12,821 nucleotides of DNA from the UHGV virus genome UHGV-0294068. One strand, written 5' to 3'. The position numbers and the translations under genes are program-made. The stretch's first letter is position 1; every line of letters begins with the position of its first letter. The notes under the pieces were generated by a model. It was not told where the DNA came from. It searched no databases and saw only the letters and a list, made by a program, of their open reading frames with translations. Shown here piece after piece: positions 1 to 7,406 of this stretch. The stretch is from a virus.

Positions 1-313
1 CCACAACCTTACAATCCTCGCAAGTGGACATGCCCCAGTTGATCAGCATTGAGATGAATGCGGATTTACCAATACCGTGACCAGAAGCGCGTGCCAGCAT
101 AAGCGGCTGATAGCGCGTCTCTGGATTCTGCAGGTGATCACGTATCTCTCGGAACGCATCAGCCTGCCACTGACGTGGGCCGGTGGCATGTGCCAGTTCA
201 GTCCCCTCTTCCCCCCACGGGAACGCATAGAGAGCATAGCCAAGCGGATCGTGAGTGAACCCTGCAATATCCTCGATCAACTGCTCTTCAGGAGATAACG
301 CTGTATCTGTCAC
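1..313 (-). CDS. Phage terminase large subunit, N-terminal part (gene continues past the window start)
   Basis: Minus-strand frame open from GTG at 313-311 (overlapping the terS stop as GTGA) to the window edge. My translation reads VTDTALSPEEQLIEDIAGFTHDPLGYALYAFPWGEEGTELAHATGPRQWQADAFREIRDHLQNPETRYQPLMLARASGHGIGKSAFISMLINWGMSTCEDCKVV, with a P-loop-like GHGIGKS. Absent from the ORF track because it has no in-window stop; track ORFs 43..267(-) and 77..298(+) are out-of-frame shadows. Confidence 0.85.
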   Translation of the reverse strand, partial: MTDTALSPEEQLIEDIAGFTHDPLGYALYAFPWGEEGTELAHATGPRQWQADAFREIRDHLQNPETRYQPLMLARASGHGIGKSAFISMLINWGMSTCEDCKVV

Positions 314-906
314 TGATTACCATCCTGACGTTCTTTGAGTCGCTTCCTGGCTGCCGCTATGCGATCAGCAATTGTCACATTCACATTAACATCCAGGCGT
401 TCTTTGAACGCGTTGACATCAACATGCTTACCAATCAGCTCAAGGTTCTTCACCTTGTCAGGCCATTTAATTTTTTTGAGGATTGTCTCTATCGAATCCT
501 CGTTCATGTTCATGATGGTCGATGACAGATCAAAGCCACTAAGCGTAGTGCGCCAGATTTTCGGCCACTCACGGATTGGTTTAAGGCTCCCATCGTCGTT
601 GAGGATGTCGATCACGTCCATCTGGTCGATCTCCACCAGGCGCATGAGAACGTAATCAGCACTGACGCGCATTCGTTTGTTGCGCTCCTCCATCAACTCG
701 GCAATCCGTTTTTGAATGCGTTCATCGCGCATCATGACACTGGCTTTAACTGCCGCTGTATTTGGGGAGAATCCTGCGTTAATCGCTGCCTGAGTTTGGT
801 TTTCAGGCGTTTTGATGTATGACTGGCAATAAGCCTCCTGCATTGTTGTTAGTGGCTTAAATTGCGTTGATTTGCGTTTATAGGTTTTAGGTTCAGCAGG
901 CATCAT
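310..906 (-). CDS. Phage terminase small subunit
   Basis: ORF 310..984(-) has the look of a small terminase subunit (KPLTTMQEAYCQSYIKTPENQTQAAINAGFSPNTAAVKASVMMRDERIQKRI). Start placed at tandem ATG 906/903 preceded by GGTGG; the track start at 984 is a TTG lying inside a hairpin. Stop overlaps terL start. Confidence 0.8.
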   Translation of the reverse strand: MMPAEPKTYKRKSTQFKPLTTMQEAYCQSYIKTPENQTQAAINAGFSPNTAAVKASVMMRDERIQKRIAELMEERNKRMRVSADYVLMRLVEIDQMDVIDILNDDGSLKPIREWPKIWRTTLSGFDLSSTIMNMNEDSIETILKKIKWPDKVKNLELIGKHVDVNAFKERLDVNVNVTIADRIAAARKRLKERQDGNQ

Positions 907-948
907 AACCACCGTGGTAATAGTTACCGTTGTGGTAATAGTACCATG

Positions 949-975
949 CAAAATAAAGCCGCCATAGTTGGCGGC
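949..975 (-). terminator. Candidate intrinsic terminator about 45 nt upstream of terS
   Basis: Plus-strand GCCGCCA-tagt-TGGCGGC (958-975) preceded by AAAATAAA; on the minus-strand transcript this is a 7-bp GC stem followed by UUUAUUUUG. Confidence 0.45.
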
Positions 976-1024
976 AGTATTCAAAATCCATCAAATTCAT
1001 CATGCATAATCTACTCGTGACATG

Positions 1025-1372
1025 TCACACTATTAATTTCGTTTCATGCCAGCCTTTAGTCACCCAGCATTGTGAGTCACCATTACACGGGCATGAATTA
1101 ACGGGAACTCTCTCGCCGCACTTACCGCAAAGTTTTCTGCTGATCGATTTTATACGCCCGCGCACACGTGCATCATCCTGGCGGATCAGCAGCGCGATGT
1201 ACTCGGCCATTTCATAGGGATCGCGACCAGGGCGCCGGGCGGCGCAGTTCCGCGCCAGCATTTCCTGCTCCTGCTTATCCAGCACCAGTTCAATTTTGCG
1301 CTCACCGGCGGCGGACTGCCGAGCGCGCTGCGCGGCTTTGCGTTCTGCGGGGGATTTAGCCACGAATCGCAC
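1025..1372 (-). CDS. Hypothetical protein, basic N-terminus and C-terminal Cys-rich zinc-ribbon-like motif (CGKCG...CPCNG)
   Basis: ORF 115 aa with GTG start at 1372; sits immediately upstream of the terS control region. Start and function uncertain. Confidence 0.4.
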   Translation of the reverse strand: MRFVAKSPAERKAAQRARQSAAGERKIELVLDKQEQEMLARNCAARRPGRDPYEMAEYIALLIRQDDARVRGRIKSISRKLCGKCGERVPVNSCPCNGDSQCWVTKGWHETKLIV

Positions 1373-5407: not shown

Positions 5408-5422
5408 TTACCCCTGAGGTAA
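5408..5422. promoter_or_regulatory. Operator-like palindrome TTACC-cctga-GGTAA overlapping the RBS of the first nin-block gene
   Basis: One of eight copies of the TTACC-N5-GGTAA motif in the window. Confidence 0.55.
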
Positions 5423-5463: not shown

Positions 5464-5491
5464 ATTTTATTACCTAACAGGTAATTATCAA
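5464..5491 (-). promoter_or_regulatory. Candidate sigma70 promoter for the nin-like operon with an operator filling the spacer
   Basis: Minus strand TTGATA (5491-5486), 16-nt spacer, TAAAAT (5469-5464); the 17-bp palindrome ATTACCTAACAGGTAAT (5469-5485) occupies the spacer. Confidence 0.5.
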
Positions 5492-5521: not shown

Positions 5522-6322
5522 TTACTTGATAAATCCTGCCGCCTTTCCCCGCCTGTATTCCTCCATCAGCCACTGCGCCGGTGTTATTCCCCCCAGGGTA
5601 GCGGCGTTAGGCATACACCCGAAACTTCGCCCTGGTGGATGGTAAACGCCTCTCCCTGTGTCCGGAGGCGTACTCATGGGTTCTGGCTTTGCCTGTATGC
5701 TGATCACCGGATCGGGTATCTGCTGTCCGGAAGCCACCTTTTTCGCCCAATCATCAAGCAGCCTGCGCGCGTGTTTCTCAACCTCAATCTCGCTAAGCTG
5801 GCGCTGATACATTGCACGGCGGGTATCACATACGACCCAGTACATAACCGGATGCCGCCACGGGAATCTTTCGGGACCACCAGGATATAAACTTTTTTCC
5901 TTGCTGTACCGGTGAAACTCCGCCATCACATCGTCAATGGTGACGCCAAGAACCATCTTGCTGTCTTTACACCACTTGATAAATTGCCCTGGCGACGGCC
6001 AGAACGGAGATTCACTGGCGCGGGCGTGGCGCATACCAGCAGAAACCTGTTCACGGGTTCGGATCCCCCCTTCGGCAAACGCAGCAATCCACTGCTGTTT
6101 TGCAGCAACTTCCTGCTCTGGCGTCTTCAGGTTGGTTACCACTGCCGCCGGAAACAGTTGTTTCAACTGTTTGAAAAGGGCATCAACAAGCCTCTCTGCT
6201 GACATGTTCACTACGTTGTCATTGTTGGTGTACTGATGCTCATAACCTGACATGCGAGAAAGGGCTTCTCCGTCACGGTTTTGTATCGCGGTAAAAACGT
6301 TGTTCACAAGAAATCCTCCCAT
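5522..6322 (-). CDS. Replication protein P-like helicase loader
   Basis: MRHARASESPFWPSPGQFIKWCKD aligns with lambda P as I recall it (MRVARRQNRPFLPSPGQFVAWCRE); sits directly downstream of, and overlapping, the O-like gene. Confidence 0.8.
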   Translation of the reverse strand: MGGFLVNNVFTAIQNRDGEALSRMSGYEHQYTNNDNVVNMSAERLVDALFKQLKQLFPAAVVTNLKTPEQEVAAKQQWIAAFAEGGIRTREQVSAGMRHARASESPFWPSPGQFIKWCKDSKMVLGVTIDDVMAEFHRYSKEKSLYPGGPERFPWRHPVMYWVVCDTRRAMYQRQLSEIEVEKHARRLLDDWAKKVASGQQIPDPVISIQAKPEPMSTPPDTGRGVYHPPGRSFGCMPNAATLGGITPAQWLMEEYRRGKAAGFIK

Positions 6323-7095
6323 GCTTCAGGGCTGTTCCAGTGCGGAACGTTGTTATCAGGTAATGTTGATTGCTTCTGTCTGCTAATCTGCAGCCGCCTT
6401 GCCAGCTTCTGCTCCCACTGTGCCTGATGGTATGCCCTACCCTCAGCCATCCAGTAAATTCTGAACTCTGCAAGTTCCTGTGCCGTTGGCAGACTGTCCA
6501 GGTAGATCCCCTGCAATGAGCTTTTCCGAAGAAAGTCATCTGATGGCTGCCATTGTTCATGCATGACAAATTTGCCTAATTGCCCTGGCCCACCAGGAGG
6601 AACAAAGTTATTCATCACGGCGTTGTTTGCGCCGGGGTCATGATGCACAGAATCCCCGTTTTTTGTCCTGCTCTCCCTCTCTTGGTTAAATGACTGGTTA
6701 TATGACTGGTTCTGGATCCCGTTTTTGGGATCATTCAACATCCCGTTTTTGGGTATATTCCCGTTTTCGGGAACATTACCGTTTTCGGGTTCATTACCCC
6801 CTTCCCGGTTGCCTTTAATGTTCCCGTTTTTGGTTATATTAAGAGAGAAAACCCGCACTCTTTTCGTCGCTCCCTTTCTCTCTCCGGTATCTGAAATAAG
6901 CCCCATTTTCATGAGCGATATAAGCCCGGCCTGCACGGTTTTTTTATTCAGGCAAGTGTCTTTAACGAGGCGTTCTATGCTGGGGTAGCAGAGGTTATAT
7001 TCATCGGCTCTGTCAGCCATCGAGAGCAGTATGAGCTTTAATGACGAGCTACCTGGATCTGTCTCCCAGGCCCAATCTGTTGCATGTCTGCTCAT
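6304..7095 (-). CDS. Replication initiator, lambda O-like, with origin iterons inside the coding sequence
   Basis: N-terminal winged-helix-like region, central N/G-rich low-complexity linker encoded by DNA iterons, C-terminal domain next to P; GGAG RBS before ATG 7095. Confidence 0.75.
   Translation of the reverse strand: MSRHATDWAWETDPGSSSLKLILLSMADRADEYNLCYPSIERLVKDTCLNKKTVQAGLISLMKMGLISDTGERKGATKRVRVFSLNITKNGNIKGNREGGNEPENGNVPENGNIPKNGMLNDPKNGIQNQSYNQSFNQERESRTKNGDSVHHDPGANNAVMNNFVPPGGPGQLGKFVMHEQWQPSDDFLRKSSLQGIYLDSLPTAQELAEFRIYWMAEGRAYHQAQWEQKLARRLQISRQKQSTLPDNNVPHWNSPEAWEDFL
6717..6833. repeat. Replication-origin iterons
   Basis: TCCCGTTTTTGGG / TCCCGTTTTCGGG / TACCGTTTTCGGG copies starting at 6717, 6741, 6759, 6777, a degenerate copy near 6795, and 6822; mostly 18-bp spacing; all inside the O-like ORF. 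Confidence 0.75.
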
Positions 7096-7391: not shown

Positions 7392-7406
7392 TTACCTTTG
7401 AGGTAC
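7392..7406. promoter_or_regulatory. Operator-like palindrome TTACC-tttga-GGTAc
   Basis: Lies between the Cro-like gene and the next gene, just downstream of a hairpin. Confidence 0.45.

Follow-up and report, generated by a model that had tools for sequence, protein, structure and literature searches.

The window analysed here, the whole 12,821-nt stretch of the virus genome UHGV-0294068, belongs to an epsilon15-like temperate phage of E. coli (genus Uetakevirus). Its first 3 kb are 94-99% identical to the E. coli phages EC.W1-9, TL-2011b and phiV10, which are podoviruses of the same genus, and to their relatives. On the minus strand, a gp49-like gene is followed by an intrinsic terminator, the small terminase gene terS and the start of the large terminase gene terL, and the repeats considered here lie in the intergenic region directly upstream of terS. 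The coordinates of all features are collected in Table 1.

TerS also matches the small terminase of the pac/headful Bacillus phage SF6 (3zqp, E=5.6e-7), and profile and sequence searches with TerL returned no Pfam or PDB sequence match. The terS start at 903 is the one annotated in EC.W1-9 and TL-2011b. The terminator between the gp49-like gene and terS was found by a terminator scan as well as by an inverted-repeat search. It is kept in most relatives, and its equivalent is the rho-independent terminator annotated at the end of the epsilon15 record.

An eight-codon mini-ORF lies between the palindrome and the terminator, and it may be either what is left of an 85-aa moron gene or a leader that is translated. 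The full-length inserted gene found in two relatives (L017 and L004) encodes C-termini ending in DEFKLE and DEFKLI, respectively, which resemble the end of the mini-ORF. A scan of the window with Rfam gave no family at threshold. The small RNA RseX (RF01401), considered for positions 951-1036, was rejected because its score of 28.6 bits (E=0.06-0.09) falls below the gathering score of 50, and it is the terminator hairpin that carries this match.

Table 1. Positions of genes, regulatory elements and dyads in the window, and of the palindrome copies in four complete Uetakevirus genomes
Feature	Position	Strand	Description
terS (small terminase)	310..903	-	197 aa, ATG at 903; PF03592 Terminase_2, E=1.5e-29; phrog_51
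Putative operator O2 (proximal to terS)	906..920		TTACC-ACGGT-GGTTA on the minus strand; 9/10 half-site bases, one mismatch
Shine-Dalgarno sequence GGTGG	909..913	-	5 nt before the terS ATG; kept as GGTGG in relatives
Putative operator O1 (distal to terS)	924..938		perfect dyad TTACC-ACAAC-GGTAA on the minus strand; 10/10 half-site bases
Predicted extended -10 TGgTACTAT	938..946	-	TG at 946-945, hexamer TACTAT at 943-938
Intrinsic terminator	950..975	-	stem-loop GCCGCCAACTATGGCGGC at 975-958, then TTTATTTT (T tract) at 957-950
Mini-ORF	981..1007	-	MHDEFDGF, then stop
Palindrome GTGACATGTCAC	1017..1028		overlaps last codon and TGA stop (1027-1025) of the gp49-like gene
gp49-like gene	1025..1363	-	112 aa, probable GTG start at 1363; phrog_536 'transcriptional regulator', E=1e-53
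Putative operator pair	5408-5422, 5470-5484		both perfect, 62 bp apart; upstream of minus-strand ORF 5404-5051
Single operator-like dyad	7392..7406		one mismatch; upstream of minus-strand ORF 7380-7111
OR-like putative operators	7729-7743, 7777-7791		one mismatch and perfect, respectively; between rep and a divergent cro-like ORF
rep (prophage repressor)	7847..8431	+	194 aa; full-length match to SPC32H Rep, PDB 5d50, E=4e-42; HTH_3 domain
OL-like putative operators	8489-8503, 8551-8565		both perfect; downstream of rep; the second abuts a TTGACA-N17-AATTAT promoter
Palindrome copies, epsilon15	2142, 19517, 39612		
Palindrome copies, Tyrion	2702, 20377, 41755		
Palindrome copies, PAT1	3438, 23124, 26302		26302 with one mismatch
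Palindrome copies, phiV10	2262, 19493, 39101		39101 with one mismatch

Paired dyads upstream of terS

The original prediction had drawn attention to a direct repeat and a palindrome near the start of terS, and both exist as described. The 11-bp sequence GTGGTAATAGT is found at 914-924 and 932-942, 18 bp from start to start, and these copies are indeed close to terS, 11-39 bp upstream of the ATG at 903 on the minus strand. By itself, an 11-bp direct repeat is mildly unusual: 0.1 exact copies within 30 bp are expected per window, and at least one was present in 7% of first-order Markov simulations. The repeat arises from two neighbouring 15-bp dyads, O1 and O2, and consists of GGTAA and a flank that both happen to have in common. 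The presence of GGTAA as an operator half-site within the repeats had already been pointed out, correctly, and it explains the repeat, a conclusion that had not been drawn at the time.

Read on the minus strand, the region runs TG-g-TACTAT-TACC-ACAAC-GGTAA-cta-TTACC-ACGGT-GGTTA-tg-ATG, from the predicted -10 element to the start codon of terS. O2 overlaps the Shine-Dalgarno sequence and ends 3 bp short of the ATG, with its right half doubling as the Shine-Dalgarno GGTGG. The centres of O1 and O2 are 18 bp apart (19-20 bp in some relatives), a spacing at which the dyads do not share one face of the helix.

The same dyad is strongly enriched in the window and clusters around the repressor gene rep. 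Allowing at most one mismatch, TTACC-N5-GGTAA occurs nine times, against 0.17 expected, and none of 200 shuffled sequences reached nine copies. When all perfect inverted repeats of the form 5-N5-5 were scanned without choosing a half-site beforehand, TTACC was the sole recurrent half-site, accounting for 6 of the 21 repeats in the window, and the same unbiased scan gave 9-11 copies each in epsilon15, Tyrion and PAT1. Related genomes contain 14-19 dyads with at most one mismatch, mostly in the immunity region. Besides O1 and O2, four of the seven other dyads in the window flank rep, and the remaining ones precede minus-strand ORFs. The pair at 5408 and 5470 has orthologous pairs in epsilon15, Tyrion, PAT1 and phiV10.

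Over its full length, the product of rep is homologous to Rep, the repressor of the Salmonella phage SPC32H (PDB 5d50/5d4z), with which it shares about half of its residues. The SPC32H repressor Rep, its operator and the antirepressor Ant are said to have been described by Kim et al. 2016. Since the dyad surrounds rep and recurs before other operons, the dyads upstream of terS are predicted, with good confidence, to be operators of Rep. A relative of different immunity, with another repressor and other sites before the same terS, was sought as a source of covariation, and none was found among the relatives, in which Rep variants of 42-100% identity all occur with the same dyad.

Conservation of the sites in related phages

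In the GenBank record of the Salmonella phage epsilon15 (AY150271.2), a protein_bind feature with the note 'repressor; lysogeny' is placed at 12..27, directly upstream of terS (47..643). O1 is the orthologue of this site, which likewise lies between the gp49 terminator and terS. Six further repressor sites are annotated in the record, some in the immunity region and others preceding genes such as those for the portal and the tailspike, and the consensus of the annotated sites is ATTACC-N5-GGTAAT. This annotation may be a prediction itself. Only the distal site is annotated before terS in epsilon15, whereas a weaker second site 18 bp downstream is present and unannotated. Such a site, paired with the equivalent of O1, is located at 30-44 in epsilon15, 85-99 in Tyrion, 23214-23228 in PAT1 and 105-119 in phiV10. 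In contrast to epsilon15, the two sites of the window share an exact 11-bp flank, hence the direct repeat. The exact repeat is limited to a subgroup from E. coli and Klebsiella, while epsilon15 and most relatives keep the dyads only.

Prophages encoding a TerS that is 66-89% identical to that of the window were found in Pseudocitrobacter, Citrobacter, Erwinia, Klebsiella, Scandinavium, Superficieibacter, Pseudescherichia, Buttiauxella and Samsonia, and paired sites upstream of terS occur in prophages of at least nine enterobacterial genera. The upstream regions were compared in an alignment of 23 unique sequences, including sequences from IMG/VR, in which the epsilon15 copy is blank as it is cut by the start of the record. 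In this alignment, the half-sites of O1 and the preceding TGnTA(C/G/T)TAT are at least 90% conserved, and the N5 spacer varies. O2 usually reads TTACY-N5-GGTAA in the relatives, is less conserved than O1 and is degenerate in one subgroup (L017, L039 and L050). The conservation of O2 is confounded by the coincidence of its right half with the Shine-Dalgarno sequence. Four relatives (L003, L005, L021 and L025) lack the terminator and have the end of a different gene 25-30 bp upstream, and TGnTAnTAT and the operator are kept in them.

Predicted control of the terminase operon

Since the motif is enriched, conserved and clustered around rep, and since Rep is homologous to that of SPC32H, we put the probability at roughly 80% that each copy of GTGGTAATAGT forms the right half of one of two neighbouring operators for the CI-like repressor Rep, with a 15-17-bp dyad (A)TTACC-N5-GGTAA(T), through which the promoter of terS-terL is repressed. 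In the proposed mechanism, the terminator at 950-975 would end the early-right operon just before the terS promoter. Since transcription of the early-right operon would stop there, terS-terL would need a promoter of its own, and TGgTACTAT (946-938) is the candidate to drive these genes. The last T of this extended -10 element is the first base of O1, and for this reason transcription would start inside O1; a consensus-level prediction places the start near 931. The PL-like promoter (8551) and the promoter at 5470 keep this register, the last T of the -10 hexamer being the first T of TTACC in both. The terS element has no recognisable -35, and a generic sigma-70 scan made no call at this -35-less element. 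An extended -10 promoter of this kind might require an activator.

With Rep occupying O1 and O2 in a lysogen, RNA polymerase would be shut out and the terminase operon would stay off. Once Rep is inactivated, in SPC32H by the antirepressor, the terS promoter would fire. SPC32H shares the upstream region of terS with the window, and its Rep is reported to be a tetramer on palindromic DNA, each pair of DNA-binding domains being drawn from different dimers (summarised in PMC9638917). Such an arrangement fits paired operators, and by analogy a Rep tetramer could suit two adjacent dyads. Rep would thus bind both sites of the window, and one tetramer could span O1 and O2.

Repressor sites dispersed over a genome that silence late or structural genes directly are also found in P1, as C1 operators, and in mycobacteriophage L5, as 'stoperators' of gp71. 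In lambda, CI is not known to act outside OL and OR. The window resembles P1 and L5 in that one repressor has many spread sites, including sites before late genes, and it differs from lambda in this respect. The stoperators of L5 are asymmetric and act on elongation, whereas the sites in the window are symmetric and lie on predicted promoters, and no sequence relationship between the two is known.

The operator pair is an ordinary member of a system that has already been annotated in epsilon15 and SPC32H, and it is thus already known. What it contributes is mainly to annotation, because the repeats before terS in epsilon15-like phages would be labelled as immunity operators and not as packaging signals. 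Under the operator reading, a single repressor would control the packaging, structural, tailspike and lysis operons directly at their promoters, a layout that is unlike that of lambda and is recorded for epsilon15. With the repressor directly on these promoters, the late programme would be held off without a Q-type cascade.

The palindrome and the gp49-like gene

The palindrome GTGACATGTCAC is a perfect 12-bp palindrome, as had been claimed, and lies 114-125 bp upstream of the terS ATG. It is unique within the window and is not part of the operator switch. About 3.4 perfect 12-bp palindromes are expected per 12.8-kb window, and at least one was present in 97% of simulations. Therefore, the palindrome is not significant alone and is significant only through its conservation and its recurrence in relatives. 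A given 12-mer is expected 0.002 times in 40 kb. Nevertheless, each of four complete Uetakevirus genomes, treated as circles, contains the palindrome at three syntenic places (Table 1). The first is the stop of gp49, 22-40 nt before the terminator that precedes terS. The second follows terL closely, with a bidirectional terminator hairpin 3-4 nt away, and the third lies where the long structural operon ends, its terminator coming 1-2 nt later. Apart from the single mismatches given in Table 1, these copies are perfectly conserved, and each stands at the end of an operon with an intrinsic terminator 1-40 nt downstream.

The palindrome also occurs in unrelated phages outside this genus, together with genes of the gp49 family. 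The Pectobacterium myovirus ZF40 carries three perfect copies, one of them 2 nt after the TAA stop of gp22, which belongs to the gp49 family. In the lambda-like siphovirus Chlobot, one copy follows the TAA stop of a gp49-family gene by 6 nt, at a distance of 26 kb from terS. The Pantoea myovirus AH07 has GTGACCTGTCAC over the stop codon of its gp49-family gene and one perfect copy elsewhere. Gene and site therefore occur together in epsilon15-like podoviruses, in the myoviruses ZF40 and AH07 and in a lambda-like siphovirus. Variation of the palindrome is confined to its two central bases (AT, AG or CT), which is the pattern expected for the site of a symmetric protein dimer.

In IMG/VR, 46 of 120 loci among the listed matches to the palindrome 14-mer encode a gp49 homologue within the few kilobases retrieved. 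Among these are diverged homologues (38-59% identity) whose genes are separated from the palindrome by kilobases. When the half-sites were swapped to make a control 14-mer of equal composition, IMG/VR gave 76 matches, compared to at least 120 for the real 14-mer, and many singleton matches to the 14-mer are therefore background. Contexts in which the 14-mer is adjacent to a hairpin are mostly the three syntenic Uetakevirus positions.

The gp49-like protein has a basic N-terminus, a helical core and a C-terminal cysteine cluster (CGKCG...CPC...C). Its family comprises 726 homologues, typically of 112 aa, in which the cysteines are invariant. Searches of Pfam, NCBIfam and the PDB, including phmmer and profile searches, gave no match. 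An AlphaFold2 model was of low confidence (pLDDT 65), with helices at 5-18, 30-43 and 52-76 and a disordered cysteine-rich tail, and a Foldseek search with this model returned nothing significant. The strand-helix-helix pattern would allow the guess of a ribbon-helix-helix fold.

The most economical reading of this association is that the palindrome may be the DNA site of the adjacent gp49-family protein, which we put forward tentatively. A more specific version is similarly tentative: GTGACATGTCAC might be the cognate site of the gp49/phrog_536 protein with its Cys4-5 cluster, with gene and site forming a travelling unit that serves as a termination, insulation or read-through device. In Uetakeviruses, the fixed place beside terminators is a hint that termination or read-through may be controlled here. 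If this is true, the copy at 1017-1028 would gate transcription of the early operon towards terS. A full-text literature search for the palindrome sequence, in whose scope the primary epsilon15 paper did not fall, found nothing, and the palindrome family and its linkage to phrog_536 appear to be undescribed. The potential for discovery at this locus is limited to this palindrome family and its link to the gp49-like gene, as a candidate pair of DNA-binding protein and site in temperate enterobacterial phages.

Sites of known DNA-binding proteins were considered as identities of the palindrome. The consensus sequences are GTGAC-N3-GTCAC (GTGAC-RNY-GTCAC) for matS, TGTGA-N6-TCACA for CRP, CTGT-N8-ACAG for LexA and GTGAGTACTCAC for SlmA. 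All four were rejected as candidates, as the palindrome reads GTGAC-AT-GTCAC, its flanks are G/T...A/G and not C...G, and its centre is CATG and not GTAC. The half-sites GTGAC and GTCAC are common to the palindrome and to matS, the MatP site of E. coli, but the palindrome has two central bases and matS has three. Moreover, the phage gene linked to the palindrome has no detectable similarity to MatP, and the likeness is a resemblance only.

A highly improbable alternative is that the palindrome is either a mere consequence of the codons with which the gp49-like gene ends, its stop included, or the -35 element of a promoter (GTGACA-N18-CATGAT). It does overlap the last codon and the TGA of this gene, and a promoter scan lists GTGACA/CATGAT at 1028-999 with 9/12 matches. 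However, the palindrome follows the TAA stop in ZF40 and Chlobot instead of overlapping it, and in L009 it follows a different gene. The second and third Uetakevirus copies are intergenic and so close to a terminator hairpin (1-4 nt) that there is no space for a -10 element. As for the promoter-like match, one was observed and 0.9 are expected in shuffled sequence.

Alternative readings as packaging signals or coding sequence

The repeats and the palindrome had been interpreted as binding sites of TerS or as a cos nicking site, and this interpretation is not supported, since the same dyad clusters around the repressor gene and before other operons. According to the first form of this reading, the repeats would be recognised by TerS as a pac site resembling pacL/pacR of SPP1, the palindrome would be the cut site of the terminase, or both. 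In its favour, SPP1-type phages keep pac in the same position, at the 5' end of terS, TerS shares a Pfam family with G1P of SPP1 and SF6, and terS-terL is bracketed by two copies of the palindrome in several Uetakevirus contigs. Nevertheless, it is highly improbable. The repeat is fully explained by the dyad consensus, which also precedes unrelated operons, and its exact 11-bp form is restricted to the E. coli/Klebsiella subgroup. Of the three palindromes in each genome, one lies where the structural operon ends, about 19 kb away, and the palindrome goes with gp49-family genes in ZF40, AH07 and Chlobot, the latter being lambda-like and having a different terminase. There may be a pac site somewhere near terS, but nothing singles out these repeats.

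A cos site generating cohesive ends at the palindrome or the repeats is even less credible. The original prediction cited the general resemblance to the repeat and dyad structure of such sites, and several GenBank records of relatives begin inside this intergenic region. However, the starts of these records differ (window-equivalent positions 1024, 1004, 985, 978 and 949) and track gene boundaries, and they are therefore conventions and not mapped ends. TerS belongs to Terminase_2 and matches the pac phage SF6, and TerL is likened to PacB of P1 in the phiV10 record and to gp2 of Sf6 in the epsilon15 record. With both subunits of the pac/headful type, a cohesive-end site is not expected, and the palindrome adjoins gp49-family genes that are up to 26 kb from the terminase genes. 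For these reasons, a cos site here is unlikely. The DNA of epsilon15 was reportedly found to be circularly permuted by McConnell et al. 1992, and Kropinski et al. 2007 are said to have used the wording 'nonredundant genome' for this phage. A literature search on the DNA ends of Uetakeviruses found no paper. The window has short repeats at the 5' end of terS in common with SPP1 pac (pacL, pacC, pacR) and lambda cos (cosN, cosB). It differs from both in that its motif is not unique to the packaging region, its direct repeat is not conserved and its terminase is not of the cos type.

A coding origin of the direct repeat, with TerS N-terminally extended from a TTG at 984 and containing a tandem peptide repeat (TITTT / VTITT), can be dismissed as scarcely conceivable: the frame is open from 984 and the long ORF is annotated in phiV10 (phiV10p01, 41..715) and PAT1 (terS, 23156..23827), but the extension would span a complete intrinsic terminator, the Shine-Dalgarno sequence sits before the ATG at 903, the distance from the -10 element to this ATG is 40, 41 or 42 nt among relatives owing to 1- and 2-nt indels, so that the region is non-coding, a different gene ends shortly upstream in the four relatives named above, and the short form of terS is annotated in epsilon15, TL-2011b, EC.W1-9 and Tyrion. 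As annotated, the long terS ORFs of phiV10 and PAT1 cross a terminator and two putative operators.

The palindrome and the stretch upstream of terS

All complete Uetakevirus genomes examined carry the perfect palindrome GTGACATGTCAC at three syntenic sites each, against a chance expectation of about 0.002 copies per genome, and every copy in these genomes has an operon-end intrinsic terminator 1-40 nt away. The palindrome is also found at the 3' end of gp49-family (phrog_536) genes in unrelated myoviruses, namely ZF40 and AH07, and in the lambda-like phage Chlobot, where variation is confined to the two central bases and the placement relative to the gp49-family stop codon varies, being before, on or after it. 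This placement in unrelated phages suggests a pair of gp49-family protein and DNA site that is mobile as one unit.

In relatives, insertions are concentrated between the palindrome and the terS terminator, a hot spot in which at least seven different inserts were seen. Several of these begin with a sigma-70 promoter and an overlapping near-consensus LexA box (TACTGT-N8-ACAGTA), followed by a small gene; judged by these motifs, the small genes are predicted SOS-controlled morons. In the window, this stretch holds a mini-ORF of eight codons (M-x-D-E-F-D-G-F-stop), which ends 5 nt before the terminator stem. Of nine long variants, eight retain the mini-ORF, and most of its changes there are synonymous. 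It may be what is left of an 85-aa gene (...DEFKLE*) present in two relatives, L017 and L004, or may be translated as a leader. An identity with the Hfq-binding sRNA RseX was rejected for the match extending from the palindrome to the terminator, since its Rfam score of 28.6 bits, mostly due to the terminator hairpin, is below the gathering score of 50.

In phiV10 and PAT1, terS is annotated from an upstream start of the long ORF, and translation from there would cross the intrinsic terminator and both operators. The annotated start probably lies some 26-27 codons upstream of the true one.

Operator spacing and a putative origin

Besides the pairs spaced by 17-18 bp, the operator dyads (TTACC-N5-GGTAA) recur as pairs with a centre-to-centre distance of exactly 62 bp, a spacing kept across genera that may be caused by looping through a tetrameric Rep repressor. 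Within the replication-initiator-like gene, five copies of a unit of about 18-24 bp with the palindromic core TCCCGTTTTCGGGA are spaced 18-45 bp apart. This array resembles a replication origin of the iteron type, like the one inside lambda O.

Coordinates of the features in the window and in related phages
Feature	Sequence	Position	Strand
GTGACATGTCAC	window	1017-1028	
	epsilon15 (L016)	2142, 19517, 39612	
	Tyrion (L018)	2702, 20377, 41755	
	PAT1 (L019)	3438, 23124, 26302	
	phiV10 (L140)	2262, 19493, 39101	
Palindrome copies	ZF40 (L141)	5125, 7622, 14944	
	Chlobot (L142)	17494	
	AH07 (L143)	3419, 15023	
Inserts after the palindrome	L017	2675-2740	
	L022, L021/L039/L050/L111, L131/L137	directly 3' of palindrome	
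Mini-ORF	window	981-1007	minus
RseX-like match	window	951-1036	minus
terS as annotated	phiV10 (L140)	41-715	
	PAT1 (L019)	23156-23827	
62-bp operator pairs	window	5408-5422 / 5470-5484; 8489-8503 / 8551-8565	
	epsilon15 (L016)	35907 / 35969	
	Tyrion (L018)	37265 / 37327	
	phiV10 (L140)	35070 / 35132; 31953 / 32015	
TCCCGTTTTCGGGA repeats	window	6713-6841	
Initiator-like ORF	window	6304-7095	minus
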